Shown: positions 17,514-64,000 of the stretch, in pieces | Numbering within the stretch: the stretch's first letter is position 1 | Layout of the letters: every line of letters begins with the position of its first letter | Source of the DNA: a bacterium | GTDB taxonomy: Bacteria > UBA8248 | NCBI GenBank assembly: GCA_965207065.1 | Contig: OZ242260.1 | Location: forward strand, 1,120,001 to 1,184,000 | Reading direction: 5' to 3' | DNA: 64,000 nt | The notes under the pieces: generated by a model | The model's database searches: none | Told to the model about the DNA's origin: nothing | What the model saw: the letters and a program-made list of their open reading frames with translations, nothing else | Translations under genes and position numbers: made by a program

Positions 17514-17760
17514 TGGGCCGTTTGAAAGCCCAGCAGGATATCACATAGCATGAAGTATTGATTCTCAATCGCTCGTTACACGAGGCGTGACTCCGCCACT
17601 GCCGGGGAATTGCAGCGTCGGGCAAGAGGACCCATCCATGGCACGTCCATCTGCGCACCTTCACAGGGCAACAAATCACCTATATCCCATTCCACGATTC
17701 CAAGACGAAGCAAGCTCTCGGGTCGCCTTACCAGCTCCCACCCGCTATCGGTTGAGCGAC
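17514..17760 (+). promoter_or_regulatory. Conserved promoter plus structured leader, copy 1 (homologous to 57938-58182)
   Basis: TTGAAA(17522)-18 nt-TAGCAT(17546); exact blocks shared with copy 2; hairpin with covariation. Confidence 0.55.
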
Positions 17761-17841
17761 GCCTCACCCGACCGAGTTCGCTTGGCCACGAGGCCGACAC
17801 TACTTGAACCAACTCAATTGGCGTGAAGGAGGGTTAACCAC

Positions 17842-17917
17842 ATGATGGAGATAATCCTCGAAGTTACCGAAGACGTAGTGAGCGATGAGTATTCGACGAG
17901 TGCCTAGCAAGCTATAA
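17842..17917 (+). pseudogene. N-terminal fragment of HicB-like antitoxin, cut by IS256
   Basis: RBS GAAGGAGG; MMEIILEVTEDVVSDEYSTSA resembles the EIIFEVTED..DGGYSASA N-terminus. Confidence 0.45.
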
Positions 17918-19291
17918 GGTCAAGTCCTGTTGATGCTGGATAATTTCTTTGGGCGCATATCGGCCGAGGGCTTCCTGATGTCGTTTTCCTCCTCGTAGTT
18001 CTGGTCCAGTTCCCTTCTGAGGGCGTCCATCTGGCGGCGCTCGAAGCCAGTGATCCTGAGCGCCCGCCATCGCTCGGAAGCCCGGATCATGGCGTCGAAC
18101 ATCAACTTGAGAACCAGCTTCTTTCCAAAAGCGTTGGGGATGATCTTCATCCGCCAACGTTCCTCGACGAACAAACGCTCGAGCAGGTTCGTAGTGCGAA
18201 CGGCTCGACGATGGTTGACGGGTGCCCGCAGGTGCGCGATGCAGGCTTCGAAGTCGTCGCGGAAGCACGCCACGGCGCCGGGAAGTTAGGACTCGTAGTC
18301 CCTGACGACCCCCCCCCCCCCGGCCAGTTCCCGGGCGATGGCGCGCGAGGGAGCCTGATAGGCCGCCGCCCGCGCCTTGAACTCGGGCCAGATGTTCTCG
18401 GGCGCCTTGGCCGCGAGGTTCCTCATCCGGTGCGCCAGGCAGCGTTGCCGTTCCGAACGCGGGAAGCACGTCTCGATTGCCTTGATGATTCCCGGCGCCC
18501 CGTCGCTGACCACAAGCAGCGGGTCGCCTAGGCCGCGGGCGCGTATGTCGTGGAAGAACGCGCTCACCGTCTCGGCGTCCTCCTTCGAACCCGCCATCAG
18601 GTGCAGCAAGACCTTGGCGTCGTTCGCCGTGAATCCCCAGGCCGCCAATACCGGTTCGCGCCTGCTGCCCGGAGGGATACGTTCCGCAATCCCGTCGATG
18701 AACAGATAGACGACCTCGTATTCGGCCAGGTCCCGTGACGCGAACTCCTGGTAGTCCACCACAACCGCTCCCCGAGTTCCGAGACCGCCGTGCGCGAGAG
18801 CAGCAGACGACCACTCTCGTCGGTGAATACGTCTTCGATGTCGCGCACCGACAGGCCGCGCGCCCCTTGAGGCCCTCCCGGATTTTCGAGCGGAACCCTT
18901 CCTCGCGCCCGGCAATCTAAGGTACCGCGTACTCGAAGAACTCTTCCGCCGTCTTCAGATTGCCCAGGCGGCGCCCGTTGCGGTAGCCCTGACTGGGCTT
19001 CGCGCAGTGTTCATAGTATTCCCGGCCCAAGGCGTCGCGGCTCTCCGCCTCCAGTGCCTCTTCCAGGATGGGCCGCGTGACGAGCTTCATCAGGTCGGCT
19101 CGCGCTTCGGGACTCGACAGGCGACCTTCGACCAGAGAGGAAAGGGCTTGGCGTGTCTGCATCGATGCCTGTATTCTCTTCTTCATGGGGTTGCCTCCTC
19201 GGTTGGATGCCGGCGCTTACCGGCACGGTTTTGTGATGCCTCCGCCGAGGATGCACCCCTCAAATTTTTCCAGCAAAATTAGGACTTCACC
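17918..19291 (-). mobile_element. IS256-family element, transposase frameshifted/pseudogenised
   Basis: Imperfect IRs GGTCAAGTCCTGTTGATGCTGGA / GGTGAAGTCCTAATTTTGCTGGA; YLFIDG, VVSDGAPG, QRCLAH, RTTNLLERLF in broken frames; no TSD. Confidence 0.9.
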
Positions 19292-19561
19292 GCGGATTTT
19301 GAAGATGGACAGTCTTTTCTCACAACGAGACAAGGCGATACGCTCCGTCGCCCGTTTTCAGGCACTAGGTTGTTTCCAACAGGCGGGGATTTCCGCTATT
19401 CTATATTGAGAAAGATGCATAATTCTTAGTCTTGTTCGGGGCTTGTCTGTAAAGTGTAATCAAATTGGAAGAGGGCGAATTATAACTCTCGCGAGTGGGA
19501 ACGCTTTTTCGTCGAACCATTCTCTCTAAAGCTTGGTTCGCAACGGCTTGCCTGAAATTAT

Positions 19562-34552: not shown

Positions 34553-34695
34553 TGTCGTTCTCCTTTTTGAGTGAGAGAACGATAATGCCCGAAGTCACCT
34601 GCCGATATAATGCCGAGTGAATGTGCCGAAAAACCCTGTAAACAAGCCGTATTTAGCAGATCACTCGGCATTATCCACTTCTCGGCATTAATGCC

Positions 34696-39399: not shown

Positions 39400-39440
39400 G
39401 CTACTTCGTTCTTCAAAGTGGACCGCACAAACACATAATC

Positions 39441-45401: not shown

Positions 45402-47209
45402 TACAATTCGTGCTCGGATAGTTCGAAGAAAGCAGCGTCGCTGTCACCGACCGTCGGAACGACGAGCGCTCTGTCGAGGAAATCGTTGCGCTGCTCACAA
45501 CTTGTTTCGGCGATCAGCAAGCAACCGTGACACGCGGCGCCTTGCAACATGCGGCCCTCAAGACTGGAGTCAGGCGCATGTTCCGCGCACACCGGGTCGT
45601 TGGAGCACAACCGTCCATGTTCGAGCGCGCGGTGGAGGTGGTTTGGGAGATGGTGCCCCGTCTCGACCAACCCGCCTAGCGTCCCTTCGGAATCTGATGA
45701 TCCCGTATAGACCAGTATGCCGTAACCTTCTTCTCCAGAATAAACGCGTTCGCGCAGGGAACTGGCTGGGTAGCCGCAGTCGAGCGCGATGGACGTCATC
45801 AGCATATGCGAAAGCGAGTGAAGCATCATATATGGCAGACCGGGGAATCCGTCCTCTGGACGATTACGCTCCTCGGCCCATGTCTGCCAGCCTTTCAATA
45901 TGAGTTGTCCGCGTGCCTGCACTCCGGGGCGCGCCAGCCACCTCTCCACTTCCTCGGGACTGAACGACAGGAACACTCCCTCTCCACGGTTCTCTACTGC
46001 GGGAAGCCAGGTGATCGTTTCAGCGAGCGAAGCCCTTGTAACATCGAGATCGAGTTCGCCGTCCTTGTCCGGGTTGACTGACTCGAACCGCGTAAACCCC
46101 AGCAGCGAGACGACCTCTCGCAGGCGATGCACAAGAACGATCTTGTCAACAACGGCAAGGAGGGGGTTCCTAGCGGGATCCCAGGCCTCGCGAGACAGCG
46201 TTTCAGCGTAGAATTTGGAGCGCGCGTTATCCTCGCCGATTAAATTGTCTCCCTTGTTGAGAATCTCGAATTCGGCAGTCTTGACCGGGACATCTTCTTG
46301 CTCTTCTCCACCCTGTTGACGACGGAATTCGGCGAGCACAGTTTCGTCAGCGATGTCGGCGAAGGCGGCGTCGAGCTCCGGACTCATCCTGAAGTTTAAG
46401 AGTGCACCCACATCGTCGAGCGTCTTTAAGCGGTCGTGATGTGTGGAGACCTTCGAAGCCAGCCCGGCGTCATATTCCGGTAGTGAGATGACGTTCATCG
46501 TCTGCGGGAAGTAAGCGTTGCTCGCCGTGCGTACGAGCAACCGATAAGGTTCGCCGCAAGCTTCCTGCGCGAATTGTCCAATCCACGGCCTCTTGCCCTC
46601 ACAGCGACCGAGAGCTTCGGCGCCCGGGCTCGACGCTTCGTAGAGTGAGCGTTCCTCGCCGCAGTCGCACACCCCGAAGGTATCGCCGATGTCGGAGCCG
46701 GTTCCACGTTCCTCGAGCCAGAGCGGTAGTTCACACGTCTTGCCACTCTGATGCACGAACCGGCGCCAGTCCAGATCGTCGATATGACCGCGCCGGCAGC
46801 CGCAGACAAAACGCACTGGTACAACCGGCTTGCGTTGACCGTCTTCGTCGCGAAACTGTCGTCTGTCGAGGTGTTCCCACCGCACTAACCTGCGCCGCCG
46901 CCACTGCGGATCGCGGGGCGAGGGCCTGGCGTCCTTGACGATGAACCAGGTCGGGAAGATGCGTGCGCCGACAGGTGCGGTTTGCTGGGCATTCTCTTCG
47001 TGACGCGGCGGCGTCCTGAGGTCGAGCGAAGGTACGTCCAACAAACGTCTTAGTTTCGCGACGAGGCGCGGTTCGTCGACCTTCTCGCTCCTAAGTCGGG
47101 GCCAATCTTGCAGACCGGAGACGATAACCGAGTAATCGGGAAGATCGATCATGGCTCCCGGGCCATAGGTCGTAATCAACTGGCTCTGGCGAATAATATT
47201 GTCGGCCAT
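45401..47209 (-). CDS. drmB: DISARM DUF1998 protein
   Basis: RQSQLITTYGPGA, RLREV, HSLSH, CSNDPVC...CHGC...C. Confidence 0.93.
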   Translation of the reverse strand: MADNIIRQSQLITTYGPGAMIDLPDYSVIVSGLQDWPRLRSEKVDEPRLVAKLRRLLDVPSLDLRTPPRHEENAQQTAPVGARIFPTWFIVKDARPSPRDPQWRRRRLVRWEHLDRRQFRDEDGQRKPVVPVRFVCGCRRGHIDDLDWRRFVHQSGKTCELPLWLEERGTGSDIGDTFGVCDCGEERSLYEASSPGAEALGRCEGKRPWIGQFAQEACGEPYRLLVRTASNAYFPQTMNVISLPEYDAGLASKVSTHHDRLKTLDDVGALLNFRMSPELDAAFADIADETVLAEFRRQQGGEEQEDVPVKTAEFEILNKGDNLIGEDNARSKFYAETLSREAWDPARNPLLAVVDKIVLVHRLREVVSLLGFTRFESVNPDKDGELDLDVTRASLAETITWLPAVENRGEGVFLSFSPEEVERWLARPGVQARGQLILKGWQTWAEERNRPEDGFPGLPYMMLHSLSHMLMTSIALDCGYPASSLRERVYSGEEGYGILVYTGSSDSEGTLGGLVETGHHLPNHLHRALEHGRLCSNDPVCAEHAPDSSLEGRMLQGAACHGCLLIAETSCEQRNDFLDRALVVPTVGDSDAAFFELSEHEL

Positions 47210-50200: not shown

Positions 50201-50605
50201 AACATTACCCATCGCCTCTTTTTCAGGTGCGTAATCGCCCCAAGACAACTCGATGTCGAGGCGCATGGTGGACGCCTCCACCAGAACGCTAAGACCCATG
50301 GAGGAAGGTAGAAAGAAGCGCTTGCCGCTGCTGCGCTCCGGCGCACTAGCGTCATCACTACCTTGATTTGGTTCGGTGGGTTCGTCGAGTTCTTCTTCGG
50401 CGTCCTGCGCCCGCTGCGTTTCCGGCGCGCCCGTCGGTGCCAGAAACCCGGTTAAATACCAGCGTGAGGGCGCATGGGGCAGGCGTTCGCTTTGTAGTCC
50501 ATCGTCTCCGGGCCGCGGGCCGATCAGGTCGAGCCGCAACGCCTCGACGAGGTAGTCGCGGACAGAGGCGCTGTCGGAGATTGAAGATTTGGCGGTTGCT
50601 ATCAT
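47216..50605 (-). CDS. drmA: DISARM SF2 helicase
   Basis: WRPFQ, FPTGGGKTEAY, QDELH, ATNMISVGLD, QATSRVGR. Confidence 0.95.
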   Translation of the reverse strand: MIATAKSSISDSASVRDYLVEALRLDLIGPRPGDDGLQSERLPHAPSRWYLTGFLAPTGAPETQRAQDAEEELDEPTEPNQGSDDASAPERSSGKRFFLPSSMGLSVLVEASTMRLDIELSWGDYAPEKEAMGNVANQDDEPGDDATDSPARRRFAPWVRRPRVESVSIDLASISLGTPVPFNVPASGGLEVVCLVRETRVPSAEGNMNARAVSVFVVNRRPAAEDDDLQDTAFAFQVEMSVSADQPFVPRYDPRGLDSEDWDERLADLHYRDVAEYAVGHNVSTRAETVDGECRRVHTEWMPRAAVEHVEPSRISDVEFGMEALGALDDGAAAKRSLNPLVRAYRVWIEGQRESAQAFTGRRREVADELVNRAALTADRIQAGIDLLENPDLLEAFCIANRAMAAAARRRRAQEKQCAPTAVDPPEWRPFQLAYILMNLRSIAEPTHVEREIVDLLFFPTGGGKTEAYLGLAAFTLVLRRLRDPDPVHRGLSVLMRYTLRLLTLDQLGRAAALICALELEREAAPARLGTWPFEIALWVGRAATPNYMGRKGDSSNATARTKTLRFAGNTSLDPPLPLDRCPWCGTKFGKHSFRLSPDTDNPKNLLVRCVSRRCDFAVKRHLPIVAVDEPIYERLPAFMIATADKFAAMPWSGETAGFFRGGDSTDPRPPDLIIQDELHLISGPLGTMAGLYETAVDHLCRRQIDDKEVRPKIIASTATVRLAKKQIQALFGRSSVAVFPAPGIERQDSFFAEQAAQQDVNPRLYLGIAAQGRGPKVIFLRSMITLLAAAQAAWEAVANGGGTNPADPYMTVVTYFNALRELGSARRIVEDEIGSRLLTYASHKRHDDEAGLFSNRRISFEPVELTSRVGTANVAEAKRRLSLEFANDERVDVALATNMISVGLDITRLGLMLVSGQPKTTAEYIQATSRVGRDPARPGLVVTLLNVHKPRDRSHYERFSAWHDSFYRGVEATSVTPFSPRAMDRGLPAVAVALARLGIPELTPMQTAQNVESHGTETTALALAVSDRARIHADGLPDEFGAYVGSRVQSLFDDWARLAHEARQDGVAFGYAHGRDSGTSTPLLREMIDPARDVLNDTQLRFRAPRSLRDVEPGVLLGIMTPEGQDIE

Positions 50606-53600
50606 AGTAACGCCTCTTGCGATTGTTCGGTTATAGGACGGCGTGATTTCGCCAGGCGTTCCTCCTGGGCGCGCTCCGCGTTCAGGGCCAGAAGCCGGGC
50701 GAGCACTTCATCACGCACGGAGCCTGGCCAGCGGTAGCGCCAGGGTTTCTTTTTTCTACCCCATGTTTCTTCGTCGATTTCATAGTCGAGAAGAAATTCA
50801 CAGCCGGTAAAAATATCACTCCAACCATAGGCGTCAAGCACGGTGCAGTCCATCTCTTCGTGCATTGCGCGGAGCGTGGCAATTTCCTGACTGCGCTCGT
50901 CGGGGTCGTGAAAACGATTGTAGGTCTTGGTCAGACCTTCATCGTTCCTGACCATAAGTTCAGCGCGAAACTCATAGTACTCTTTACCAGCGGCTTCGAA
51001 TGAGGAGTGCGTTTCCCAACCTTCGGGGAAGGGAAACGTTTCGAAGCAGTCGGAGGGTGTATAGCGAAGCCGGTCTTCCAAAGACGATCCGAAGAAGCGG
51101 GCCCATATCTCGTGTGTACGGGATTGAAGTGCACAGAACGCTGAATATGTCTCGAAGGGGAAAACGATCATTGATTCCGCATAAACCATATGCGCGGGTA
51201 AAAAGGCAAAAGCCGCCTGCTGACCTACCCTCGAAATCACCAACACGCGAGAAAGTTCCTCAATGGCGGCGTACAACTCGGGGCGTAGACGTTCAAACTG
51301 CCACCATGGCGCAGTTGAGTGGCTTGCACGGGTGCCTTTTACCCGCTCCTCAACGATCTTTAGCAACTCCGGCCAATCTACCGCCACTGGTTCTTGATAT
51401 TCCAATGGGACGACTTCGTAGCGTTGCCAGTTTGTTCGTGTGTCTTCATCCGCGTCCCGCCATACAGCGCTCAAATCGGCGCGGCGCAGAGGCAAATCGC
51501 GGAAGTTGATTACATAACGATGATGGGCATGGGTAGGACTGGTGTTGACCTCCTCACCGCCAATATAGGGGAAAATAACCTGGCGGTTGCGCGTGTTATC
51601 TTCAAGCAGCTGGTGCATTTCGGAGAGTGGTGTAGCGACTTCCTTACTGTCGGTATCGTCAAAAGTGAAACCCATTCCGAGTACGATACTGCCTTGGAAG
51701 CTCTTTCCGGCATTGAGCTCCAGTCGTTCGGGATCGTCGTGGCCACCGCTATGAAATAAAAATGCGGAAATAGTCTTGACATCCTGCCCATCCAGGTTAT
51801 TCGGCCCGGAATAGGCTCCCTTGGCAGCGTGGACAACGCTCACGACGACCGCAGCCTTTCCAGGCCATTTGAGCCTTCGTTGAGCGCGGAAGATATGGCC
51901 TCTGTGTTTGCAGATCCATCGCAGTCCTGTAGAGCGCGTGTCGCCCTGCCCGATAGTGTTCGTGGCGATGAGACCAAATGCGCCTTCTTTCCGCAAGAGA
52001 TTGAACGCCCTGCGGAAGAAATGCGCCACGAGGTCGGAATTGCCATGGCTTTCAGTATGAAGCTGCTTGAGCCAGTCGGGATAGGCGGGAGGGTTCGAGG
52101 CAGCGATCGTATTCTTGCCAGCAAATGGCGGGTTGCCTATGATCGCATCGAAACCCGGGTTCTCACGCTCGAAAACCTCAGGGAACTCCAACTCCCAATG
52201 AAAGGGTGAGACCGGTGGCTCTGCTGCTGCACGCGAGGCAATTGCCGTCGGACCTTCTTTGAGAAGCATATCCGCATACATCAGCCGGTTGCTCTCACGC
52301 TCCTTGGGCTTCGCTCCCTCGAAAAACGCTGTCAGCACCAAGCCGGCAAATCGGTGAATGTTTTTGAGTTCGCTCTCGGCTTCATCCAGGAACTGTCGCA
52401 GTTCATGTTCGGATGCCTCTTCGCCAAGTTCGCGAATCAGTTGACGCATTTCTGAGACACGCTCTACATGCTTACGAACCTCTATAGTCTCCGTACCGAG
52501 TTGAAAACTCGGCGCCTCGGCAGCCCAATGGAATCTTTCTATCTGGTTGCGGGTCAGGCCAACCAGGGAATCGCCGTGACGCAGGGCATGGTCAATGAAA
52601 GTGAACTCGTGATCCCGTGCGAGCGTTACCAGCCAAAGCGAAAGGCGTGCGAGATCGATGGCCATCGGATTCTTGTCGACACCATAGAGGCATCGCTGAG
52701 CGACAAGACGCCGGGCGTGAAGCAACTCGTCCTCGTCGGCCGGCAGGCCCGTCGGACCGCCGTGCATGTTCCAGGCAACGACCAGACGTGCTGAGAGTTG
52801 CCGGCAGGCCTCAACCAGAAAGGCTCCCGAACCCGTTGCCGGGTCGAGAACCTTGAGGTCGAGAACGTCCTCGGGCCGCGCGTTTACTCCCAGTCGCTCG
52901 AATACGGGCCGCAGGGCTTCCGAGACTATCGGCTCAGTCAGAGAGCGCGGCGTGTAGTGGCTGCCGGACCGTCGGCGCTCATCCGTCGGCTGAAGGATTG
53001 GCGTACCAGCGGGAACGATATCGGGCGTCGCATCACGGTCGATTGTACGGTCAAGCGCCGCCACAACATCTGCGAGAGTGGAAGCGCTGCGGAGCGTAGC
53101 GACAGCGTTTCCCGTCAGTTTCCGATCTGTTGCATCCTGGAGCGCTTTCGCACGCTTGCCGTCCTCCAGCGCTACCAATCCATCGAGGTCGATGATGGCG
53201 GCGGCCCCGGTTCTATTCGGCGAAGTCACGGCGATAGAGCGGCCTGTAGTCAACTCGACGCGGAAGCCCATGACGGCCTCGTAGACCGAACCAATCTGTT
53301 CCACATCGAGGGTTCGATAGGACAAGCGCTCGCCGTCCAGCACCATCAGAGACTGCAACACCTTCCAGACACACGCGTCCGAGACCATTGGAATGTCCGG
53401 TTCTCCGTCTGGCCCACGCCCTTCAAGGAAAGGGAACCGGCCCGGTTCGAATAGTGTGCCTTGGCGTGCGACGAACGAGAGTCCGGCGTGGCCGCCACCG
53501 CCGTGGATCAATCGGAACAATGAAAGCAGTTGCGCCCAGGCGCCGAACCGCTGGTCCATGGTATCGGGCCAGGCCGCTGCATCGGCGCGCAGACGTGCGA

Positions 53601-54546
53601 AAAGGCCGCCCAAGGAATAGTACTGCTGATAGACGCGATGATCGGGCATAAGGCCCCTGTCTTCGGCGTAGAGCACGAAGACAAGCCGCATCAGCGTCGT
53701 AATCAGTCCGCCGTAAAGATGCTCGGGATTGCGGCGTGCCAGTTCGGTCACTTTTCCGCCGCCGCGCGCGTCTGCCGACACGAAGCCCCGTAGTAACTCA
53801 TGGAGCGCGGCAAGCACCTGCCGGGAAAGTCTCGTGGATACTTCGGCCTGTGCATCGCGACTTTTTGCCAGAAGCGCAGGTAATCTTGCCTCGGGTGGGC
53901 CAACGAAGAGAGCCTCCGCCGACAAGAGCATGTCGAAGGCGGCCAAGATCGGGCGGCCCGCTGGCAGAGCCATCTGCGAAAAATCAAAAGTCACATGCCC
54001 CGACGATTCGCCCTTGGGTGCGTAGATCAGACGGATGCGATCTTCGGTGCATAGCAGACCGACCGGAACGCCGGTCTCCCGCAGCAGCCGTTCGAAACGG
54101 GAGTGACGGGTCGCATTCCAGCCAGCGCCGTCTTCAGGAGGCTTGTCGAGATCGGCACCGCTGTCCTCTTTGCGGATGAGCATTGTCCAAGCTGTGTCTT
54201 CATCCGTTGGCACGGCCCAGGTGGGCGAGAGCTCGACTTGTAATTCAGGAATGGCGATTTCCAACTCATCCAGATGGCCTGTTGCATCCAGAAGGTCGCC
54301 TTCTTCCCAACCCAAATAGTCCAGAAACACACGCCGCAAGTCGGGCGCACAACTGCGGGCCGTGGCGCCGTTTCCGTTTTCCTCGAGTAGTACGCGAAAT
54401 TCGCGCTGACGCCCGGCAATGTTGCGGTCTGGCACGACCTGGGCGTCTACCATGACGTTCGGTGAGACCACGAGACCCACGGGTTGAACGAAACCCAGCC
54501 ATTCCTGGTGAGCGAATATCAAGTTTCTACGTTCGCGATCCGCCAT
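50602..54546 (-). CDS. drmMI: DISARM N6-adenine DNA methyltransferase (Eco57I/MmeI-like)
   Basis: GSHYTP, DPATGSGAFL, GNPPF, LRYTPSDCFETFPFP. Confidence 0.92.
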   Translation of the reverse strand: MADRERRNLIFAHQEWLGFVQPVGLVVSPNVMVDAQVVPDRNIAGRQREFRVLLEENGNGATARSCAPDLRRVFLDYLGWEEGDLLDATGHLDELEIAIPELQVELSPTWAVPTDEDTAWTMLIRKEDSGADLDKPPEDGAGWNATRHSRFERLLRETGVPVGLLCTEDRIRLIYAPKGESSGHVTFDFSQMALPAGRPILAAFDMLLSAEALFVGPPEARLPALLAKSRDAQAEVSTRLSRQVLAALHELLRGFVSADARGGGKVTELARRNPEHLYGGLITTLMRLVFVLYAEDRGLMPDHRVYQQYYSLGGLFARLRADAAAWPDTMDQRFGAWAQLLSLFRLIHGGGGHAGLSFVARQGTLFEPGRFPFLEGRGPDGEPDIPMVSDACVWKVLQSLMVLDGERLSYRTLDVEQIGSVYEAVMGFRVELTTGRSIAVTSPNRTGAAAIIDLDGLVALEDGKRAKALQDATDRKLTGNAVATLRSASTLADVVAALDRTIDRDATPDIVPAGTPILQPTDERRRSGSHYTPRSLTEPIVSEALRPVFERLGVNARPEDVLDLKVLDPATGSGAFLVEACRQLSARLVVAWNMHGGPTGLPADEDELLHARRLVAQRCLYGVDKNPMAIDLARLSLWLVTLARDHEFTFIDHALRHGDSLVGLTRNQIERFHWAAEAPSFQLGTETIEVRKHVERVSEMRQLIRELGEEASEHELRQFLDEAESELKNIHRFAGLVLTAFFEGAKPKERESNRLMYADMLLKEGPTAIASRAAAEPPVSPFHWELEFPEVFERENPGFDAIIGNPPFAGKNTIAASNPPAYPDWLKQLHTESHGNSDLVAHFFRRAFNLLRKEGAFGLIATNTIGQGDTRSTGLRWICKHRGHIFRAQRRLKWPGKAAVVVSVVHAAKGAYSGPNNLDGQDVKTISAFLFHSGGHDDPERLELNAGKSFQGSIVLGMGFTFDDTDSKEVATPLSEMHQLLEDNTRNRQVIFPYIGGEEVNTSPTHAHHRYVINFRDLPLRRADLSAVWRDADEDTRTNWQRYEVVPLEYQEPVAVDWPELLKIVEERVKGTRASHSTAPWWQFERLRPELYAAIEELSRVLVISRVGQQAAFAFLPAHMVYAESMIVFPFETYSAFCALQSRTHEIWARFFGSSLEDRLRYTPSDCFETFPFPEGWETHSSFEAAGKEYYEFRAELMVRNDEGLTKTYNRFHDPDERSQEIATLRAMHEEMDCTVLDAYGWSDIFTGCEFLLDYEIDEETWGRKKKPWRYRWPGSVRDEVLARLLALNAERAQEERLAKSRRPITEQSQEALL

Positions 54547-54549
54547 GAT

Positions 54550-57500
54550 TTATCCCGTCCGCGGCCAGAGATAGACCAGGCCGATCGGATCGACACGGAC
54601 GGCGCGCACCTTGTAGGTGTCAGCAATCCGGCGCGGCTCGGTTTCGAGTTCGAGTTCGATAGCTTCGAGGCGCCTTGCCCATGCTCTCCGGTCGGCTTCG
54701 CGCTGGCGCCGCTCAGCCGTATCGAGGTCGAGGAAGAGTTGCCCGTCGTCCTTCCCTGCGGCATCTGCGATCCTCTTCCGCTGGCGCTCGAGCAATTCAA
54801 TCATGCTGCGTCCTTCGGTGTCCGCCCGTTCAGCAAGTCGACTTTGCGCCTCCTTGGCCAAATCGGCCGCACGGCGCTGCAAATGCGGCAAGAGATCCGT
54901 GATATCGGCTTGTACCGAAGACGACAGAACTGTTTGGACCGGATCTGAAATGCTGTTCTGCCCCGCATCGTCGAGGGCCGTCTGAAGCGACGTAAGCGTC
55001 GCTTGTTCGGCTGTGCGACCGTAGGGCGCGAGTGGGCCCTCCCTCCGTTCCGGATCGAGCCAGCGCGCCGTCACAGGCACGAGTTCCTCGTGAAGACGCG
55101 CCGCGCGTGGTCCGTACACTGCGAGTCGGCCGAGCAGAACGACGCGCGGAACTGCATCGGGGGCCACGGTCAAACAGGCCTTGGACAGATCATGGTGGAT
55201 CAGGCCTTGCGCCGTGAACCTGCCGAGCAAGCGCCGGGCGACTCGATGTTCGAGATGCAGTTGTACGGCGTTATCCCCGAGCCTGCCGGTATCTTCGAAA
55301 GTAACGGGCCGAATGGCTGCTCGGCGGCGCCATTCGCCAAGTCTTTCCCCCTGTTTCCTGCGCACGCGCAAAGTATCGAGAGCCGCGTTCCAGCCAGGAT
55401 CACCCGTGATCGCATCTGACCCGGCCGGAAAGGAAAAGAGGTGTGGAGTATTGGGTTCTCGCTTCTCGGCGGAATCGAGCGCCGTTATTCCGTGGGCGCC
55501 TGCGAGACGCAGGCTCATCGACATGGTCTGGTGGAATTGTGAAGCGGTTAGCCCGATACGAGTGCGCGACCGTTCCAACCTGGTTCGAAGGCCATCGACT
55601 TCTTCCCGAAGCCTGTCCTGGCGATGGCGGGCGTCCTCCAGTTCGTCCTTGATAGTTCTCTGCGGCTCGCCGGGGGAGAAATTCTGGATGAAGGTCGTGA
55701 GTTCCTCGATGTTGTCGTGGCGCATGCCTTCCGCACGAAGGTCTTTCGTGAGAGGCCCCTCGAGAACCTTGGCGACGCTTCCCAGTTCTTCGCGGATGCG
55801 TTCGACCTTGTCTACCAATACTTGCAGAACGCGGTCCTCGTCGCGCTGGGTGAACACGAAATACCGGCAGAATACTTCGTCTGCGGGTTGAAGCTTACGG
55901 TCGATGCGTCCATTGCGCTGATCGAGACGGCTCGGGTTCCAAGGCAGGTCGAAATGGAAAAGGTCATGGCAATGGCGTTGGAGGTTGAGGCCCTCCCGCG
56001 CGGCATCGGTCGCAATGAGAATGCGAAGCGGATGATCGCTCGGCTCGGTGTTGAAAGCGTGCTTGATATCTTCACGGCGCTGGCGGGAGGTCATCCCCGA
56101 AAAAACGGCGATTCGCTCGTATGCCCTGTCGGAATGCGCGATCGCCTCGTTCAGACATCGTTGGAGCCAGTGGCGCGTGTCCTCCCATTCAGTGAAGATG
56201 AGAAGGCGGCGGTCATTCCATTTCACGGACGCGTCGCCACGGGCGGAGAAGAGAGGGCACATGTTGGCGTCGATCCATTCGATGATCTTGTGAACGCGCG
56301 GATCGGCGTCGTAGCGGCTCGCCTCGGCGACATCGCGCATCTCGTTCACAAGGGCGAGTTCGCGGACCAACGCCTCGCGCGTCTCCTTGCGGCTGGCATT
56401 AGTCGATGCCGCGGTTGCTGCCGTCATCAGATCGGCCAAATCGGATTCGAGTAAATCGGATTGTTCTTCATCTTCCGGCGCATGAGTTTCTTCGTCGACC
56501 TCTTGATCGTGATCGATCGTGCCGGCAAGTTCGGAGTCGGGTTCGATATCAACCGTCAAACGTTCAAGAGCCGCCTGCTGCACATGCGATATCGCAAGAG
56601 CTTCCGTAGCCTTCTCAAGTGAGCGTTCCACGCTCCTGCGATGAACCGCGAGCGTCTTCGCGAAAGCCTCGATGGATGACAGCAAGCGTTTTTGCAGCCC
56701 GCCGATCGCCAACGCCCCGGCGGTTTGTTGCGATCTTGACTCGTTCCTGAGTCTCATTTCCCGCTTGAGCCGGTAGGCATCCAGCAACCTCGGCAACACA
56801 AGTTCGGGCGCGTCTGGCGGTAGCCCGTCGATTTTGACCGGGTCCACGGTGCGCTTTGGGAAACCTCCTTCAAGTTCCCGGATGTCGGACTTGAGACGCC
56901 GGACCAGTACCTCGTCGAGTTGTCCCTTGAGCACGCGGACCCCACGGCAGAAACGTTGCGGGTCGAGAATTTCGAGCAGAGCGGAGAAACTGTTGGAATG
57001 CCCGTTATGCGGTGTCGCCGAAAGGAAAAGGCGATGCTCAAAACGAGGCGCGATATCGCGCACGGCGCGCGTGATCTGCGAATCGATCGCGTAGCGTGCG
57101 CCGCTCGCAGGGGCGGCGTTGTGCGCCTCGTCGAGGATCAGAAGCGATTGGGGAGCGAACTCGCCGAGCCAATCGCGCAGGCCTGAAGCGTAGGCCTCGT
57201 CAATGAGAAGGCGATGGGAAATCAGAAATCGCGAGTGGGTGGTCCATGGATTGACCGAAAATCCGCGTTCGCGGCGCATCCGCGTCACATAGGACCGGTC
57301 GAGAATGGCGAATGTAAAGCCAAATCGGGCTTCCATCTCGTCCTGCCACTGGTCGAGCATCGCGGGCGGACACGCGACCACAATCCGGTCGATGCGGCGG
57401 CGCAACAGCAGTTCTCGAGCAATCAACCCGGCCTCGATGGTCTTGCCGAGACCAACGTCGTCGGCGATGAAAAGATTGACGCGCGGCAACCTGAGCGCCT

Positions 57501-57864
57501 TGCGCAGTGGGTCGAGCTGGTAGGCGTCGATACGAATGCCAGCTCGGAACGGCGCCTGGAAGAGGTTCGGGTCTGTTGCTGTCACGCAATTCCAAGACAG
57601 CGTTCGGAGATACGCCGCGAATAGTGCGGGATCGTCGAAGCCCTTCTCGGCGACAGAGGACCAACCGTCGTCCTCAAGCACACGGGCGTCGAGCTCATGT
57701 TCCCACAAGACCGACAACGGCTCTCCCTGCGCGTCGTCGTCGAGGCAAGATAGATCGACTAGCGTCGCTTCGGCAGGTGATGGAGGCGCCGTCACATTCT
57801 CCACGAGATATCGGCGCTGCCGGACCAGCGCGATCCGGCCGGGTTCTGGAGATAAAAGCGTCAT
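54550..57864 (-). CDS. drmD: DISARM SNF2-like helicase
   Basis: ADDVGLGKTIE, LDEAH, LSATPHNG, QRNGRIDR. Confidence 0.95.
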   Translation of the reverse strand: MTLLSPEPGRIALVRQRRYLVENVTAPPSPAEATLVDLSCLDDDAQGEPLSVLWEHELDARVLEDDGWSSVAEKGFDDPALFAAYLRTLSWNCVTATDPNLFQAPFRAGIRIDAYQLDPLRKALRLPRVNLFIADDVGLGKTIEAGLIARELLLRRRIDRIVVACPPAMLDQWQDEMEARFGFTFAILDRSYVTRMRRERGFSVNPWTTHSRFLISHRLLIDEAYASGLRDWLGEFAPQSLLILDEAHNAAPASGARYAIDSQITRAVRDIAPRFEHRLFLSATPHNGHSNSFSALLEILDPQRFCRGVRVLKGQLDEVLVRRLKSDIRELEGGFPKRTVDPVKIDGLPPDAPELVLPRLLDAYRLKREMRLRNESRSQQTAGALAIGGLQKRLLSSIEAFAKTLAVHRRSVERSLEKATEALAISHVQQAALERLTVDIEPDSELAGTIDHDQEVDEETHAPEDEEQSDLLESDLADLMTAATAASTNASRKETREALVRELALVNEMRDVAEASRYDADPRVHKIIEWIDANMCPLFSARGDASVKWNDRRLLIFTEWEDTRHWLQRCLNEAIAHSDRAYERIAVFSGMTSRQRREDIKHAFNTEPSDHPLRILIATDAAREGLNLQRHCHDLFHFDLPWNPSRLDQRNGRIDRKLQPADEVFCRYFVFTQRDEDRVLQVLVDKVERIREELGSVAKVLEGPLTKDLRAEGMRHDNIEELTTFIQNFSPGEPQRTIKDELEDARHRQDRLREEVDGLRTRLERSRTRIGLTASQFHQTMSMSLRLAGAHGITALDSAEKREPNTPHLFSFPAGSDAITGDPGWNAALDTLRVRRKQGERLGEWRRRAAIRPVTFEDTGRLGDNAVQLHLEHRVARRLLGRFTAQGLIHHDLSKACLTVAPDAVPRVVLLGRLAVYGPRAARLHEELVPVTARWLDPERREGPLAPYGRTAEQATLTSLQTALDDAGQNSISDPVQTVLSSSVQADITDLLPHLQRRAADLAKEAQSRLAERADTEGRSMIELLERQRKRIADAAGKDDGQLFLDLDTAERRQREADRRAWARRLEAIELELETEPRRIADTYKVRAVRVDPIGLVYLWPRTG

Positions 57865-57937
57865 ATACTCAACTCGTTGGATCGGGCTTCAGACTTTGCG
57901 CACCGAAAGCTCGTTTCCGCCAAACTGCGGACGAAAT

Positions 57938-58182
57938 GTCGCTCGCCTGAGAGCAGGCGGGAGCTTGTAAGGAGGCCTAACAGTTCGCTTCGTCTTGGAA
58001 TTATGGGGGTGAGACACAGATGGAGTGTTGTTCTGCGTGCGAGCGCAGATGGACTTGCCATGGATGGGTCCTCTTGCTCGACGCGTTAGCCCCCAGCGGT
58101 AGCGAAGCCGCGCCTCGTGTAACGAGCGAGTGGGAAACAATACTTTATGCTACGCGATATCCCGTCGGGCCTTCAAGCCCGA
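57938..58182 (-). promoter_or_regulatory. Conserved promoter plus structured leader, copy 2, upstream of DISARM
   Basis: TTGAAG(58171-58176)-18 nt-TAGCAT(58147-58152); homologous to 17514-17760. Confidence 0.55.
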
Positions 58183-58476
58183 TAGAAGACGGTCCAACGG
58201 CATCCTAAAGAGGACGAGCCGAGGCGCGAGCGGGGACGGCGGAAGGGCGTCCAAGAGAGGACGTTAACCACCTCCATCATCCACTCGCTGCAAGTTGGCG
58301 CACGATGCGGACGATCTATAGCGAGTCGAACACCTTACTCACTCACACCATCGGCCGGGACTGGAGGATACGCGCTACGCCGTGGAACGATTCAAATTCA
58401 CTGCCGATAGCAACATCCGCCCATCCCCGCAGAGGGATCCGCAACAGGTGAATATATGGCGAGTGGCGTTGTGAAG

Positions 58477-59808
58477 CTAGAAGATGTCCTCGTCCTCAGT
58501 CGTTGCTTCTAAAATCTCGGCGATGTCCTCAAGCAAATCGTTCGGCGACTCTACATTACCCTCAAGAGGAATGAAGTTTGGATGTGATAAAAATTCCTCG
58601 GCAGCGGCATGGGTCAAAACCAGGGAAATCCGTCGGCTGAGGTCTTCGCCTACGCGCATATTGCGAGGAATGATCGGCTTTTGCCGCTCAATGCCTGGAA
58701 GCGTGACAAAGCAAACGTTAGGCGTTAGCGGCACGATCAACCGCATTCCCTCCTTCGTGGTAGCCCGTGTGCAAAAGGTGTCGGGCAGGACGAACACCGG
58801 ATGATCGGAACGCACGATCGCCCAAGGGCTCCACATCAATGGAGCCGCAATTCGATCATAGAACTCGTTATTACGATACAGGGATTCATAGGCCTTGGGA
58901 GGCATCTCGGGATCGTCGCCGTGGCCAAGTTCGGCAATCACAGGCGCAATAGCATCTTGAATCGCTGCGATTGTGTAGGGGTTGCGCAGGATATGGATGA
59001 CAAGAAACCCGATAAGAGCTTCCCGCTGAGGTGAGTTGAGGGGGTGTGTCTTGAGCAGCATTTCAATCGGGCTCTTGGCGTCACCTTCAAGCAGGCTGAA
59101 ATAGGCCTCCAGCGGATCGCTGTAGAGTTTGGGGAGATGGCCCCATTGGCTGAATTCACGTCTGAACGACATCCAGCCGTCAGGTGTTCGTCGCCACCGA
59201 AGTACCTTATCGTTGGTTGCCCAGTGGTCACGGATGAACCAGCGCGATATAAAATGGTTCTTGCCGACTGGCTTGATTGGGAGCTTTGCTAGTTTAGGGT
59301 TCGCCTCACGTTCGATCGCCTTTGCCGACTTAGGTTTCCATCGCTCCTCCAAGCGTCTCGACCAGATACGCTCATGGACCATCCGGGCCATGCCGCGAAT
59401 GATGTCTGCGCCTTCCGAACCCAGACATTCCTCACGCTCCTGTTCAGGATCGATGGATGACAATTCTCGGCCGGTGACCCGCTTCTCGACGACCCGCTCA
59501 GCCAACCAGAACTGAAGCTGGACAAGTTCCATCACCATGTCCTCACGGACGTTGATGTGCAGTTCGACTTTATTGGCTTCGGACAGCATCATCATTTCAA
59601 TGATGACCCGATCAACGATTTCGTCCCAGACCGCTGTCAAAGCATCAATCAAATGGTGTTCGAGTTCGGGAAACAGCTTCCGGACCACCGTGCCGGAAAT
59701 CCAGCTTTTCTCTGAGCAACGTTTCATCCTTAATCCATAACTGTAGTGGCTTGAGACCATCCGAGTTTGTGCGTGCGATAATCGGCGTTGTTGATTTAGG
59801 TTATTCAC
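58477..59808 (-). CDS. DUF4238-domain protein with N-terminal extension (start uncertain)
   Basis: KNHFISRWFI, LEAYFSLLEG, FVLPD...VPLTPN. Confidence 0.65.
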   Translation of the reverse strand: MNNLNQQRRLSHAQTRMVSSHYSYGLRMKRCSEKSWISGTVVRKLFPELEHHLIDALTAVWDEIVDRVIIEMMMLSEANKVELHINVREDMVMELVQLQFWLAERVVEKRVTGRELSSIDPEQEREECLGSEGADIIRGMARMVHERIWSRRLEERWKPKSAKAIEREANPKLAKLPIKPVGKNHFISRWFIRDHWATNDKVLRWRRTPDGWMSFRREFSQWGHLPKLYSDPLEAYFSLLEGDAKSPIEMLLKTHPLNSPQREALIGFLVIHILRNPYTIAAIQDAIAPVIAELGHGDDPEMPPKAYESLYRNNEFYDRIAAPLMWSPWAIVRSDHPVFVLPDTFCTRATTKEGMRLIVPLTPNVCFVTLPGIERQKPIIPRNMRVGEDLSRRISLVLTHAAAEEFLSHPNFIPLEGNVESPNDLLEDIAEILEATTEDEDIF

Positions 59809-60015: not shown

Positions 60016-60850
60016 CTCGATGTTCGCTCTCGTCTACGTTAGCAGGCGATTTGATGCTCAGCTCCAGCGGTGCTTACCTGCTGGCATGCGCGCGTCAGTC
60101 CGCCACGTAGTCGCTGTTGTGCCGTAGTGCTTGCTAGGGTGAGCTCCGTGCGACGAACTTGATCACATCCCCATCCGAATTTCCGCTGTCCGAACCTCGA
60201 TGCTTGATGACGCCGCAGTGAAAACCGCTTCTACCACAGAGGCTGCTCCGATCTCTGCCGCGCTGAGCGGCAACCCGGTGCCATCCGCCCGCCATACCTG
60301 CGCACGCATCGCGGAGAGGCGGAGCCGGGCCGAGCAACGGTAGGGGTTGTTCGATGAGGTAATGCTTTTCTCGCGGCTTTCATGAGTTGGACTATCGCAC
60401 ATTTCTGGGTGCAATTCCCACAAGTTCGGGTTTCTACGTGTGGGGAATCCCCTCCCCCTTTTTGAGAGGGAGTCTAGGAAGTCGAGTCTTCGCAGAAAAG
60501 GGCCATTGAATAACTTGGTTGCGATAGCGGGCGTATGGAGGACCATGTGTCGGTCCACAAGCATGTTGGCGTATGTGAGCATGAATAACATTTAGCGGCT
60601 CTCTTCGCGCAATCTTGGTCCTAGCGCTTACCGAGGGCCTTCAGATGATTGGTTAACCATTGCGTTACTCTCAGATATAAACTATCGCTCGTAACGCTCA
60701 TATCGCGCGGGGCTTTATGCAGGCATCAGCTGCACTTTTCGGGGAAAGCATTGATGAAGGTTTGAAAATCGTAGTATAGCCAAGCTGAGTTATCATTTTG
60801 CTGCTAAATCTTAGCGCTACAAATAAACCCCGACGACCATAGAGTACACG

Positions 60851-63800
60851 ATGTCTACACGGGATGAATTTTTACCGACAACAAAGGCGCTGCTGGCACA
60901 ACAAGCTGGCTATCTGTGTTCCCACCCCGAATGCCGACGTCTTACCATTGGGCCCAATGAATCCGGTGATGGCGTAATCAATATCGGTGAGGCGGCCCAT
61001 ATCACGGCCGCAGCTAAAGGCGGGCCGCGCTACGATCCCAATCTCTCCTCTGAGGAACGCAAAAGCTTAGTTAATGGCATTTGGTTGTGTCGCAACCATG
61101 CTAAGGAAGTGGACTCAGATCAGGAACAATACACGATCAAGACTTTGCGGGAGTGGAAAAACACGGCGAACAATAAAGCTTTCGATGCGCGAACGACGGG
61201 TAAACTCCCAATACCGCAAGGAATGGTAGCCGTAGGTACTGAAATTATTGAACTGTTAGGGATTAGAGATACCGACGTCGAGAAACTTATCGAGCGGATG
61301 AAAAAAGCTGCGCAAAACGATATCGATAAGTTCAAAGCTTTGCCAGGCTGGCCGATCCATGCTGTCGCGCTAAGCATGCAAACAGTGGGAAGTGAAGCGC
61401 CGACGTTCGATGCAGCCGCGTTAGCAAGAGCAATCGCAGCAAGCGGTGAGGCTACTATCGTCGCACCACCAGGCACAGGAAAATCAACAACTTGTATTCA
61501 GATCGTCGAAGCACTCCTCTGTCAAAACGATATTGTCTCAGTCCTTATTCCGCTCAATGAGTGGTCTGCCCAGCCCCATGGTTTTCTCGTATCGCTTTCT
61601 CACCGTGCACCGTTTAACGGAATCAGAGAGCAAGATTTTCAGGCGGCTGCCGCCCGTGGGAGTCTGGCAATAGTCCTCGATGCTTGGAACGAGCTTGATC
61701 CGACATCACGTAGGAAAGCGGCGGCGGAGATTGATCGTCTACGCCGAGATTTGCCTCTCCTCCAAATTATCGTCAGTACGCGGCGACAGTTAATTGATGT
61801 ACCGCTGAACGGGCCTGTCGTTGAAATTCAGCCCCTGTCTGAAAAGCAGCAAATTGAAATCGCACGTGCAGTTAGCGGAGATGTAGGCGAAAAATTGCTC
61901 AATCGGGCGTGGCAAGAGGAAGGATTGCGCGAATTGGTATCGATCCCGCTTTACCTTACAGCCCTTCTCCAAGTACGGCACGATTCCCTACCTGACTCCA
62001 AAGAGGAAGTCCTTACCCTGTTCATCGCAGCCAGCGAGAAAAGCAGCGCTGAAGCCCTTAGAGACGGACTCTATGGTCTACACGGAGATATCTTATGCGG
62101 CTTGGCTGTTGAGGCGACTGTTGCAGCCAATACTGCTATTTCGGATGCACGCTCCCGAACGATTGTTGCCGAAGTGGAGGTCCGACTTAAGTCAGCCGGG
62201 CAAATCACTGAACAGCCGCAACCTGCTGTGGTTCTAGAATTACTTGTGAATCACCATGTGTTGATGAGAATTGGAGGATCGGGCGGCGTTTCGTTTCAGC
62301 ATGAACAGATTCAGGAATGGTATGCCTCCCTCAAAGTGGAAGACCTCATGCGATCTGCTACGGAAGGTACACTAGAAGCGCGGGCGAAGCTGCGCAGGGA
62401 TATCCTGAATAATGTCGCTTGGGAAGAGGCTATCCTTTTCGCGTGCGAAAGGCTCTCGCGTGCGGACAAAGCGGAAATAGCTGCCGCGGCTATCCTTGAC
62501 GCGCTCTACGTTGATCCCATGCTCGCCGCCGAGATGATTTTCCGCTCTTCCGACAATGTTTGGGCGGAAATAAGTCGCTCCGTCCAAGAGTTTATAGATC
62601 GCTGGCACGTTCCCGGCACGGTCGATCGGGCTTTGCGATTCATGATTGCTTCAGGCCGCGCCGAATTCTTCGATAGTGTATGGCCGCTCATTACACATGA
62701 TGATGACCAAGTAAGCCTTTCAGCACTGTGCGCAGCTCCTCGCTTCCGGCCGACGATACTTGGAAGCGATGCACCAGAGCGAATTGCGACTTTACAGCCG
62801 GACATACGCCGTAACGTTCTACATGAAATCGCATTCAACAGCGGGGTAGATGGCCTAGATCTCGCGGCTTCCGTGGCACAAGTTGACCTTGATCCCGAGG
62901 TGAAGGCCGCTGTGATCGATGCCTTCGCGTTTCGTCGTGCCGATCGCCACATAGCTGAGGTGCTGCACGGCGCTGATGAAAAGACTTTCGATTTGGTAGC
63001 CCGTCGGGATCTGATCGATAGGACAACCGACGAATACGTCAAGAAAGGTCTCGATGCCGCCCGCGAACGCCAACGGACTAAAGGCATTTCAACTTATGAT
63101 CGATTGCGCGCCATCGTCTATGGGCACGACGATGAAGACCACAGCAGTGTACTGACATCAATCATCAAGGAATTGCAGATCGACGATTATCTAGACGCGG
63201 CAGTCCAACTTATTTACCAAGCGCGCGCGCGATACTCGCGGGCCATTGCTGATGGTCTTTTGCAGCGGTTACGCGCAGGCCGAACATTATTCTACGGTGC
63301 ACATGACATTTTAGCGGCTGCGGAACTTAGTTTGGAAGACGAAGAACTGCTTGAAATAGCTGTCGCCAAGAACCAACACCATGACCGCCAAGCGGAAGCC
63401 GCCGCTTCCGTCCTAGGACCGCAGGCTATAGGTCGCATGATCGAAGTACTTCTTAAAACAAAGAGCCGAGTTCGCGACACGAACGGAAGATATGACCAAG
63501 TGGCAAGCGATCACTATCACGGTTTGCTAAGACGAATTGCGCACACACAAACCACAGGCTTGGTTACCGCGGTCCGTAACCGATCCGCAAAGGCGGGTAA
63601 TGAAGAAATGGCGGACTTGGCAGACTTGATATCGCGTCATCTAAGTGAAGAGAAACTTCGTAGCATTTCGTTTGATGATCATTTGCATGACGCGATCGTT
63701 GAACTCGCAGAAGATTGGGGGGTGCGGATGCTGTCCTCCGGCGACGATGTGACTCGTTCGCAACTATCTTCGATTGTGAGATTGGCCAGCCGTGCCCCAT

Positions 63801-64000
63801 CGGTGAGATTGCTTCCATTGTTGAAACGGCTACTCATTGAAGAACTGCGCCGATACCGTGTCTTCTTGGAAGAAGCGGAAGCGGCCGGCTGGGCTCACGG
63901 GAAGGCTGTCAACGAAGCGCGCACACTCCACACACATGAATATCAGCGAGCGTTTGAGTCGATCAACTTTCCAGAGACCGCTGCACTGATGCGCGAATAT
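60851..64000 (+). CDS. HNH endonuclease fused to NACHT/STAND NTPase with long helical C-terminus (Avs-like), 3' partial, at least 1050 aa
   Basis: Translated by hand: CSHPEC...AAHITAA...GGPRY...NGIWLCRNH; Walker A APPGTGKS (61463-61486); Walker B IVLDAWNE; SIPLYL; FQHEQIQEWY. Absent from the ORF track because there is no stop in the window. Confidence 0.88.
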   Translation, partial: MSTRDEFLPTTKALLAQQAGYLCSHPECRRLTIGPNESGDGVINIGEAAHITAAAKGGPRYDPNLSSEERKSLVNGIWLCRNHAKEVDSDQEQYTIKTLREWKNTANNKAFDARTTGKLPIPQGMVAVGTEIIELLGIRDTDVEKLIERMKKAAQNDIDKFKALPGWPIHAVALSMQTVGSEAPTFDAAALARAIAASGEATIVAPPGTGKSTTCIQIVEALLCQNDIVSVLIPLNEWSAQPHGFLVSLSHRAPFNGIREQDFQAAAARGSLAIVLDAWNELDPTSRRKAAAEIDRLRRDLPLLQIIVSTRRQLIDVPLNGPVVEIQPLSEKQQIEIARAVSGDVGEKLLNRAWQEEGLRELVSIPLYLTALLQVRHDSLPDSKEEVLTLFIAASEKSSAEALRDGLYGLHGDILCGLAVEATVAANTAISDARSRTIVAEVEVRLKSAGQITEQPQPAVVLELLVNHHVLMRIGGSGGVSFQHEQIQEWYASLKVEDLMRSATEGTLEARAKLRRDILNNVAWEEAILFACERLSRADKAEIAAAAILDALYVDPMLAAEMIFRSSDNVWAEISRSVQEFIDRWHVPGTVDRALRFMIASGRAEFFDSVWPLITHDDDQVSLSALCAAPRFRPTILGSDAPERIATLQPDIRRNVLHEIAFNSGVDGLDLAASVAQVDLDPEVKAAVIDAFAFRRADRHIAEVLHGADEKTFDLVARRDLIDRTTDEYVKKGLDAARERQRTKGISTYDRLRAIVYGHDDEDHSSVLTSIIKELQIDDYLDAAVQLIYQARARYSRAIADGLLQRLRAGRTLFYGAHDILAAAELSLEDEELLEIAVAKNQHHDRQAEAAASVLGPQAIGRMIEVLLKTKSRVRDTNGRYDQVASDHYHGLLRRIAHTQTTGLVTAVRNRSAKAGNEEMADLADLISRHLSEEKLRSISFDDHLHDAIVELAEDWGVRMLSSGDDVTRSQLSSIVRLASRAPSVRLLPLLKRLLIEELRRYRVFLEEAEAAGWAHGKAVNEARTLHTHEYQRAFESINFPETAALMREY

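Follow-up and report, generated by a model that had tools for sequence, protein, structure and literature searches.

A twice-occurring non-coding element ahead of a class 1 DISARM operon: a candidate lineage-specific promoter and 5′ leader

We analysed a window of 64,000 nucleotides (nt) of contig OZ242260.1 (assembly GCA_965207065.1, lineage UBA8248), whose numbering is used throughout, and within it a non-coding stretch of about 240 bases that occurs twice in the genome, one occurrence lying directly ahead of a DISARM anti-phage operon. The operon lies on the minus strand and begins with drmD (54550..57864), which encodes an SNF2-like helicase recognised by NF038317 (1030 bits, cutoff 610), by the PADLOC DrmD model and by Pfam. 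Behind it come drmMI (50602-54546; Pfam Eco57I/N6_Mtase/MmeI), drmA (47216-50605; NF038325, 1122 bits), drmB (45401-47209; NF038324, 566 bits) and drmC (44607-45401; NF038319, 163 bits), the four NF matches all being above their cutoffs. By its gene content this is a complete class 1 DISARM operon, and the DISARM label given to it in an earlier model-made reading of the letters (the first-pass annotation) was well founded. NF038317 aligns residues 6-1103 of DrmD with model positions 2-1020, which supports the drmD start codon. The genes are tightly packed: drmMI and drmA overlap by 4 nt, drmB and drmC by 1 nt, and the other two junctions are gaps of 3-6 nt.

The copy of the element ahead of drmD (copy 2) occupies 57938..58182 on the minus strand and copy 1 occupies 17514..17760 on the plus strand, the two being inverted and facing each other across 40 kb. 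Both are recovered by direct alignment, by BLAST of the genome against itself (second copy at E 4.9e-44) and by profile nhmmer (each copy at about 1e-85), and copy 1 also appears among the inverted-repeat pairs. The local alignment joins 58176-57938 (minus) to 17522-17760 (plus) over 238 columns, of which 184 are identical (77.3%), and GGGC...GCCC arms carry the likeness outward to 58182 in copy 2 and 17514 in copy 1. There are two 1-nt indels, an additional base at 17614 in copy 1 and another at 58009 in copy 2, and transitions make up 39 of the 54 mismatches (72%). On both sides of the two copies the flanks align no better than shuffled sequence. Compared with shuffled mismatch positions, the mismatches are clustered (p ∼0.04 by the sum of squares of the runs, p ∼0.02 by the top three runs), and the three longest exact runs measure 22, 19 and 15 nt. 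Both copies are sense-oriented with respect to what follows, ending 73 nt (copy 2) and 81 nt (copy 1) ahead of the next start codon.

Read along the minus strand, copy 2 opens with the promoter-like TTGAAG-N18-TAGCAT (58147..58176), where the −35 and −10 hexamers would lie; it matches the consensus at 8/12 positions, below the threshold of the scan. The corresponding TTGAAA site of copy 1 (17522-17551) scores 9/12, and one such site was found where 1.0 was expected in shuffles. Just downstream of the inferred transcription start is an invariant 19-nt block (58111..58129) holding the palindrome CTCGT-TAC-ACGAG (58126-58114), possibly an operator or a small hairpin. As a hairpin it is weak (z −0.5 and −0.9), and operator-like motifs do not recur beyond chance elsewhere in the window. 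A sigma-54 reading of the TGGCACG...TGC motif was set aside by eye, the GG-to-GC spacing being 11 and not the 10 of the consensus. The best-conserved core follows, 42 nt (58043..58084) of which 40 are identical; it holds the Shine–Dalgarno (SD) sequence AGAGGA, the ATG (58061-58059) of a short upstream open reading frame (ORF), hereafter uORF, and the first six codons of that frame. Further on are the invariant 15-nt block ATTCCAAGACGAAGC (57987..58001), whose frame of reading differs between the copies, and the 3′ hairpin GCTC-CC-GCCTG-CTCT-CAGGC-GAGC (57941..57964), where the homology ends. A non-homologous spacer of 73 nt (57865..57937) then leads to drmD; it holds the tail of the uORF and no strong SD for drmD.

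The first-pass annotation had described most of this layout. Its estimate of roughly three-quarters identity agrees with the 184/238 of the alignment, its three exact blocks are the runs of 19, 22 and 15 nt, and its TTGAA(A/G)-N18-TAGCAT is found at both positions just given. The short inverted repeat that it placed around the −35 is there, as a stem of only 4 bp. Likewise it had noted that AGAGGA-N7-ATG opens a small ORF in both copies, and indeed this ribosome-binding site and start codon are invariant; that the frames part after about 17 codons, which the alignment places at codon 18; and that the stop of a 66-amino-acid (aa) uORF overlaps the drmD start as ATGA, which it does.

In copy 2 the uORF has 66 codons (57861..58061, minus) and its stop, TGA, overlaps the drmD ATG at 57864, a 4-nt overlap like that of drmMI with drmA. 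From the conserved ATG of copy 1 a leader ORF of 62 codons runs on the plus strand (17638..17826) to a TGA directly ahead of GAAGGAGG, the SD of the following ORF, and 15 nt ahead of the next ATG. Both uORFs thus stay open to within 16 nt of the next start codon, by different frames: the frame is common to the two copies up to the indel at 58009, which falls in codon 18, and divergent beyond it. As a peptide, conservation in copy 1 is limited to about 7 residues, and Pfam matches neither the uORF of copy 2 nor a 79-aa ORF (17587-17826) enclosing that of copy 1. The start of drmD itself is preceded by GAGTTGAGTAT, which has no AGGAGG-like run and by eye is a weak SD.

Conservation of the element is at the level of nucleotides and not of protein, as had been proposed. 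In each of 18 comparisons (6 frames in 3 ungapped blocks) nonsynonymous codon differences (8-16) exceed synonymous ones (0-6), and several frames hold stops in one of the copies. The shared stretch is judged non-coding because no frame has synonymous-biased change; the codon-position-biased conservation that a decayed coding sequence would have left was looked for and is absent.

A near-identical orthologous locus was found in sequencing runs of a second organism (B; the organism of the window is A). One contig of 691 nt spans 57958-58659; it has 25 differences from A and lacks 11 nt (58092-58102) ahead of the uORF ATG. This deletion would shift an alternative 83-aa sense ORF and a 62-aa antisense ORF, and the uORF is the sole frame intact in copy 1, copy 2 and organism B, where its length is the same, 66 aa. 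Among 5.8 billion proteins the copy 2 uORF has a single match, P0005 (66 aa, 55/66 identical), which is encoded on a 68.7-kb contig, and the copy 1 uORF has none. Between P0005 and the copy 2 uORF, 9 of 25 spacer codons differ, against 2 of 41 within the element. To judge by these codons, the uORF peptide is without visible purifying selection; in copy 1 the shared 3′ third is read in a different frame. The spacer (57865-57937) is also far more diverged between A and B than its surroundings: at least 7 base differences fall in a stretch of 40 nt, where drmD and the element contig differ by about 3%. This may be a recombination tract or relaxed constraint.

Searches for the element elsewhere returned little. 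BLAST and profile nhmmer of the own genome gave no copies beyond the two; a third nhmmer match (E 0.053) was taken as chance, lying inside a 248-aa ORF beside a 656-aa ORF. BLAST of 60 relatives gave no match, and a covariance model of the 98-nt core gave no credible match in 50 other genomes of the phylum. Its one candidate there (genome G007; E 0.0014, 29.9 bits) was rejected as lying inside a 338-aa ORF, which we take to be glycosyltransferase-like in sequence. Neither copy, used as query, matched the plasmid and phage collections. The element was not found, at E up to 10, in 10 plasmid DISARM loci whose DrmD is 54-68% identical. Four remote DrmD-like loci within the phylum (L006-L009, at 32-33% identity) do not have it either, and the DrmD N-terminus as query found no relative in viral contigs. 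Exact-word scans used one block per large collection, and absence there means not found, not proven. Block 1 had no match in viral contigs, and its 19-mer had one in metagenome contigs, in a GC-rich, coding-looking stretch without other similarity. A 20-mer of block 2 matched genome contigs once, at the start of an unrelated protein-coding gene, and an 18-mer matched viral contigs once, within a phage gene; all three were taken as chance matches in coding sequence. Block 3 with the hairpin arm, as an exact word, had no match. On these searches the element is private to its lineage and a close relative; it does not form a detectable family, and it is not a leader of DISARM operons in general. 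The earlier suggestion of a portable module controlling defence and toxin–antitoxin operons is accordingly left without support, there being two copies in one genome and one near-identical orthologue, and none elsewhere among the sequences searched.

Upstream of copy 2, on the same strand and separated from it by a 295-nt gap, is a gene for a DUF4238 protein (58477-59808, minus; Pfam). Further out, an ORF of more than 1049 aa (60851-64000) runs off the window. Pfam has no match for it, but PADLOC models of nuclease-type effectors (PDC-M68A, 7e-26; Cap4-like endonuclease) recognise its first ∼110 residues. It is divergent from an unassigned 142-aa ORF at 60163-60591.

The surroundings of copy 1 are much disturbed. 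All that is left between it and the next insertion sequence (IS) is a 21-codon ORF with a strong SD (17842..17907, plus). The IS is an IS256-family element (17917..19293, minus; Pfam Transposase_mut) whose transposase is split into ORFs of 300 and 89 aa; it has imperfect terminal inverted repeats and no target-site duplication, and the other IS256-like copies in the genome are partial, beginning at query position 159. This arrangement suggests an IS-mediated deletion or rearrangement beside copy 1. On the other side, GC content jumps from 37% to 56% at 17513/17514, exactly the 5′ edge of copy 1, which abuts a low-GC (∼38%) cassette (16100-17513). That cassette holds a 241-aa ORF (16646-17371) with a hydrophobic stretch near residue 55 and no match in Pfam, PADLOC or NCBIfam; it is unrelated to the DUF4238 protein on the copy 2 side. 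Just before the cassette, at 15812-16036, is a 5′ fragment of a group II intron (RF02005, D1-D4, 83.6 bits), with GTGCG ahead of it at about 15777. The fragment is not followed by a reverse-transcriptase ORF and GC content falls to about 42% from ∼16100; the intron appears to be truncated.

From about 11 kb onward the window is a mosaic island of integrases, TrwB, a split TrwC gene, IS elements and defence-like genes. The two P4-type integrase genes (11200-13550) stand in tandem, overlap by 4 nt and encode proteins 56% identical, which suggests that two related islands accreted one beside the other. A run of three tyrosine-recombinase genes (31069-34552, minus), flanked by 103-nt inverted repeats that are 96% complementary (30972-34694), stands between an ORF with a TrwC relaxase domain (29548-30969) and an AAA_30/UvrD_C helicase ORF (34714-36150); the arrangement resembles that of a recombinase-in-trio element which has entered a relaxase gene. 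A pair of tandem 42-nt units, 71% identical (24503-24586), lies beside an IS5/IS1182-like transposase gene (22784-24076), and two overlapping, adjacent DUF5677 ORFs (38497-40307) lie between conjugation remnants and defence genes.

The reading that we tentatively favour, and to which we would give slightly less than an even chance, is that the element is a promoter and 5′ leader particular to this lineage, in which a conserved initiation region opens a leader ORF that is independent of its own sequence and coupled to drmD. The island would then carry two diverged versions of one promoter and leader region. A weak sigma-70-type promoter, TTGAAG-N18-TAGCAT, would start a transcript near 58140; some 80 nt on, the invariant ribosome-binding site and ATG, set in a potential hairpin, would open the 66-codon ORF, the amino-acid sequence of which would be immaterial. 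Ribosomes on the uORF would cross the 3′ hairpin, continue over the variable spacer and terminate at the drmD start codon. Because drmD is without a good SD of its own, it would be translated mainly by termination–reinitiation coupling, and the conserved 42-nt initiation region would set the amount of DISARM. The palindrome just past the start could serve as an operator. Copy 1 would be the same module ahead of a cassette since destroyed by rearrangements, that of the IS256-like element among them. The analysis shows the duplication, its conservation as nucleotides and not as protein, the position of both copies with respect to the start codons behind them and the identity of the DISARM operon; the promoter, its transcript, translation of the uORF and the coupling are inferred.

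Some comparative material bears on the coupling. Of eight annotated class 1 DISARM loci on plasmids, two have a small gene ahead of drmD whose end falls on the drmD start codon, and for this reason we regard coupling of drmD to an upstream frame as a recurring layout. On an Acidibrevibacterium plasmid (locus L013) a ribbon-helix-helix (RHH) gene is followed by a PIN toxin gene at 2085-2504, with drmD starting at 2501; on a Methylocystis plasmid (locus L014) a Phd antitoxin gene occupies 2277-2474 and drmD starts at 2474. In the other six loci the upstream regions vary widely, with gaps of 114-647 nt and divergent genes in three.

Several observations weigh against the promoter and coupled-leader reading. 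Promoter-like sites occur at chance frequency, about once per region, and the retention of both hexamers and their spacing between the copies is the sole point that favours a promoter. No terminator is predicted between the DUF4238 gene and the element, and read-through into the operon is possible. The length of the uORF is unremarkable, 13% (copy 2) and 22% (copy 1) of dinucleotide shuffles being as open. The ORF downstream of copy 1 has its own strong SD, and coupling would be unneeded there. The 5′ edge of copy 1, where the GC content jumps, may be a rearrangement junction rather than the natural edge of a module. Between A and B the element is no more conserved than its neighbours (25/691 nt, against 24/848 and 37/1130 in drmD contigs), and the two differences of P0005 within the element, R24Q and S25I, both fall in the invariant 15-nt block. 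No independent lineage with the element was found, so that selection is not measurable. As to structure, the consensus fold of the two copies has a z-score of −1.7, with 5.6% of column shuffles as good; the antisense strand folds lower (−52.2 against −39.5 kcal/mol, raw alifold energy); and the hairpins are stable in copy 2 only, those of copy 1 being at shuffle level.

The first alternative is that the element is a neutral relic, the remains of a longer intergenic or backbone segment on two related islands integrated in tandem, its edges being breakpoints and its promoter activity at most incidental. We consider this unlikely, though the best sustained of the alternatives. It would sit well in so heavily rearranged an island, with its tandem integrases, truncated group II intron, IS256-like and IS5-like elements and a relaxase gene split by the three-recombinase element, and the GC jump at the 5′ edge of copy 1 fits a breakpoint. 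The excess of transitions, an A–B divergence at about the rate of the neighbours, and the failure of any other lineage searched to keep the element point the same way. Against drift alone stand the clustering of the mismatches, the shared orientation and similar distance to the downstream start in both copies, an SD–ATG core conserved at 40/42 against 77% overall, and a uORF that is open in all three sequences.

A structured cis-regulatory RNA, whether riboswitch-like or a protein-binding leader, or else a free small RNA (sRNA) of about 190 nt, is improbable. Here the conserved blocks would be loops and junctions and the variable parts stems, and the alternation of invariant blocks with variable segments does suggest such a plan; a possible 7-bp long-range helix, TCGCTCG/CGAGCGA, would enclose the entire element in each copy. 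For the aligned pair of copies RNAalifold predicts 42 pairs, of which three have changes on both sides. The 3′ hairpin with two compensatory changes and one mismatch, described in the first-pass annotation, is present: of its 9 pairs, 6 are invariant, 2 are changed on both sides and 1 is broken in copy 1. With two sequences only, such changes give no covariation statistics, and 139 of 500 shuffles do as well. The copies also behave differently when folded singly. In copy 2 the SD/ATG hairpin (−18.3 kcal/mol, z −2.8), the 3′ hairpin (−12.3 kcal/mol, z −2.3) and the whole element (z −2.2) are more stable than shuffles, but in copy 1 the same three give −13.1 kcal/mol (z −0.7), −6.9 kcal/mol (z −0.6) and z +0.06. 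Moreover, the variable hairpin between blocks 1 and 2 is mostly removed by the 11-nt deletion of B. No intrinsic terminator was found in the region of either copy, so a discrete sRNA end is not evident. In Rfam 15, the whole window at gathering score yields the group II intron fragment alone, and both copies against 4227 families at E up to 10 yield only sub-threshold chance matches of 11-16 bits; neither copy belongs to a known Rfam family by covariance model. The structured RNA proposed earlier thus finds no significant evidence, the consensus fold and the compensatory changes being within reach of shuffles and the hairpins stable in one copy, and the element is not a new RNA class.

That the element is a decayed protein-coding gene, for instance the remnant of a small toxin–antitoxin-type gene such as overlaps drmD in some class 1 DISARM loci, is very unlikely. 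The idea draws on the PIN-toxin and Phd-antitoxin genes that end on the drmD start in two of the eight plasmid loci, and on the length of the Phd gene, 65 codons against the 66 of the uORF. It runs against the absence of synonymous bias in any frame, the indels of 1 nt and 11 nt, the lack of a Pfam match in the uORFs, and tblastn searches of both regions with the PIN, RHH and Phd proteins and those encoded next to them, which gave nothing below E 0.3 within the element; a uORF with one near-identical homologue in the protein collection, and none for copy 1, is equally at odds with it.

Weakest is the view that the copies are mobile-element ends, namely terminal inverted repeats closing a transposon-like unit of 40.7 kb, or else Frpo/ssi-type single-strand promoters belonging to a conjugative element: the inverted copies do bracket 17761-57937 with its IS elements, conjugation genes (TrwB, TrwC) and DISARM, but there is no target-site duplication at the outer edges, identity is just 77%, a transposase lies at neither end, neither copy proved to be the end of an IS, the genome holds two copies only with none in the plasmid and phage collections, and the single-stranded DNA folds are local and not conserved (z −3.6 in copy 2, −0.1 in copy 1). 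Frpo elements have a long intrastrand hairpin of single-stranded DNA that rebuilds a promoter, and a hairpin of this type is absent from the single-stranded folds of both regions. A retron or DRT-type non-coding RNA was also considered and rejected: no reverse transcriptase is adjacent, the next gene is drmD, and the ORFs flanking both copies have no reverse-transcriptase domain by Pfam.

Little is known of what switches on DISARM and most other defence operons, or of what keeps their toxic activity in check once they have been transferred horizontally; a leader acting as a gate on the translation of the first gene would, if true, be a simple answer. A bolder version of the promoter and coupled-leader reading, which we regard as improbable, would make the element a plug-in cassette for the expression of defence operons acquired by horizontal transfer. 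It would consist of a promoter, a palindrome resembling an operator, a structured initiation region and a sequence-independent leader ORF that passes ribosomes to the first gene about 75 nt behind. Such a cassette would have been used at least twice by recombination within the island, and would set or delay the expression of DISARM in the manner of the control elements of restriction–modification systems. The present value of the element is as a well-delimited candidate, to which the comparison adds that coupling of drmD to a frame ahead of it recurs among DISARM loci.

Among known systems, the leaders and sRNAs of Rfam resemble the element in size (∼190-240 nt), in 5′ position and in having conserved blocks that alternate with variable segments; the element differs from them in matching none of the 4227 families and in a consensus fold not significantly better than shuffles. 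Correia, BOX and MITE-type (miniature inverted-repeat transposable element) sequences are dispersed intergenic repeats that carry promoters. Like them, the element forms a discrete non-coding unit that stands ahead of genes at more than one site, but it has two copies only, these are 23% diverged, and it lacks terminal inverted repeats and target duplications.

For DISARM itself, a search of the literature for a leader or promoter found protein regulators alone. CapH/CapP control defence operons transcriptionally, including a subset of DISARM, and a vapC-like gene and a regulator fusion have been reported before drmD (bioRxiv 10.1101/2022.04.27.489752). The likeness would be a regulatory device directly upstream of drmD; the difference is that CapH/CapP are divergently encoded proteins, whereas no such genes adjoin this drmD, the upstream gene is the same-strand DUF4238 gene and the element is non-coding. 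The toxin–antitoxin-type genes upstream of drmD in some other DISARM loci stand in the same position, and their stop overlaps the drmD start in the same way; they can be recognised as protein genes, whereas the uORF here is without similarity to them or conservation as a protein.

Leader ORFs translationally coupled to the first gene of an operon are a general bacterial mechanism. From the known cases the present one, in which coupling is predicted from the sequence, differs in having no runs of regulatory codons and no known arrest motif, in a uORF whose length is not statistically unusual, and, at copy 1, in a next ORF with its own strong SD. What it shares with them at copy 2 is a conserved SD and ATG, a peptide that is not conserved, an ATGA overlap and a next gene without a good SD.

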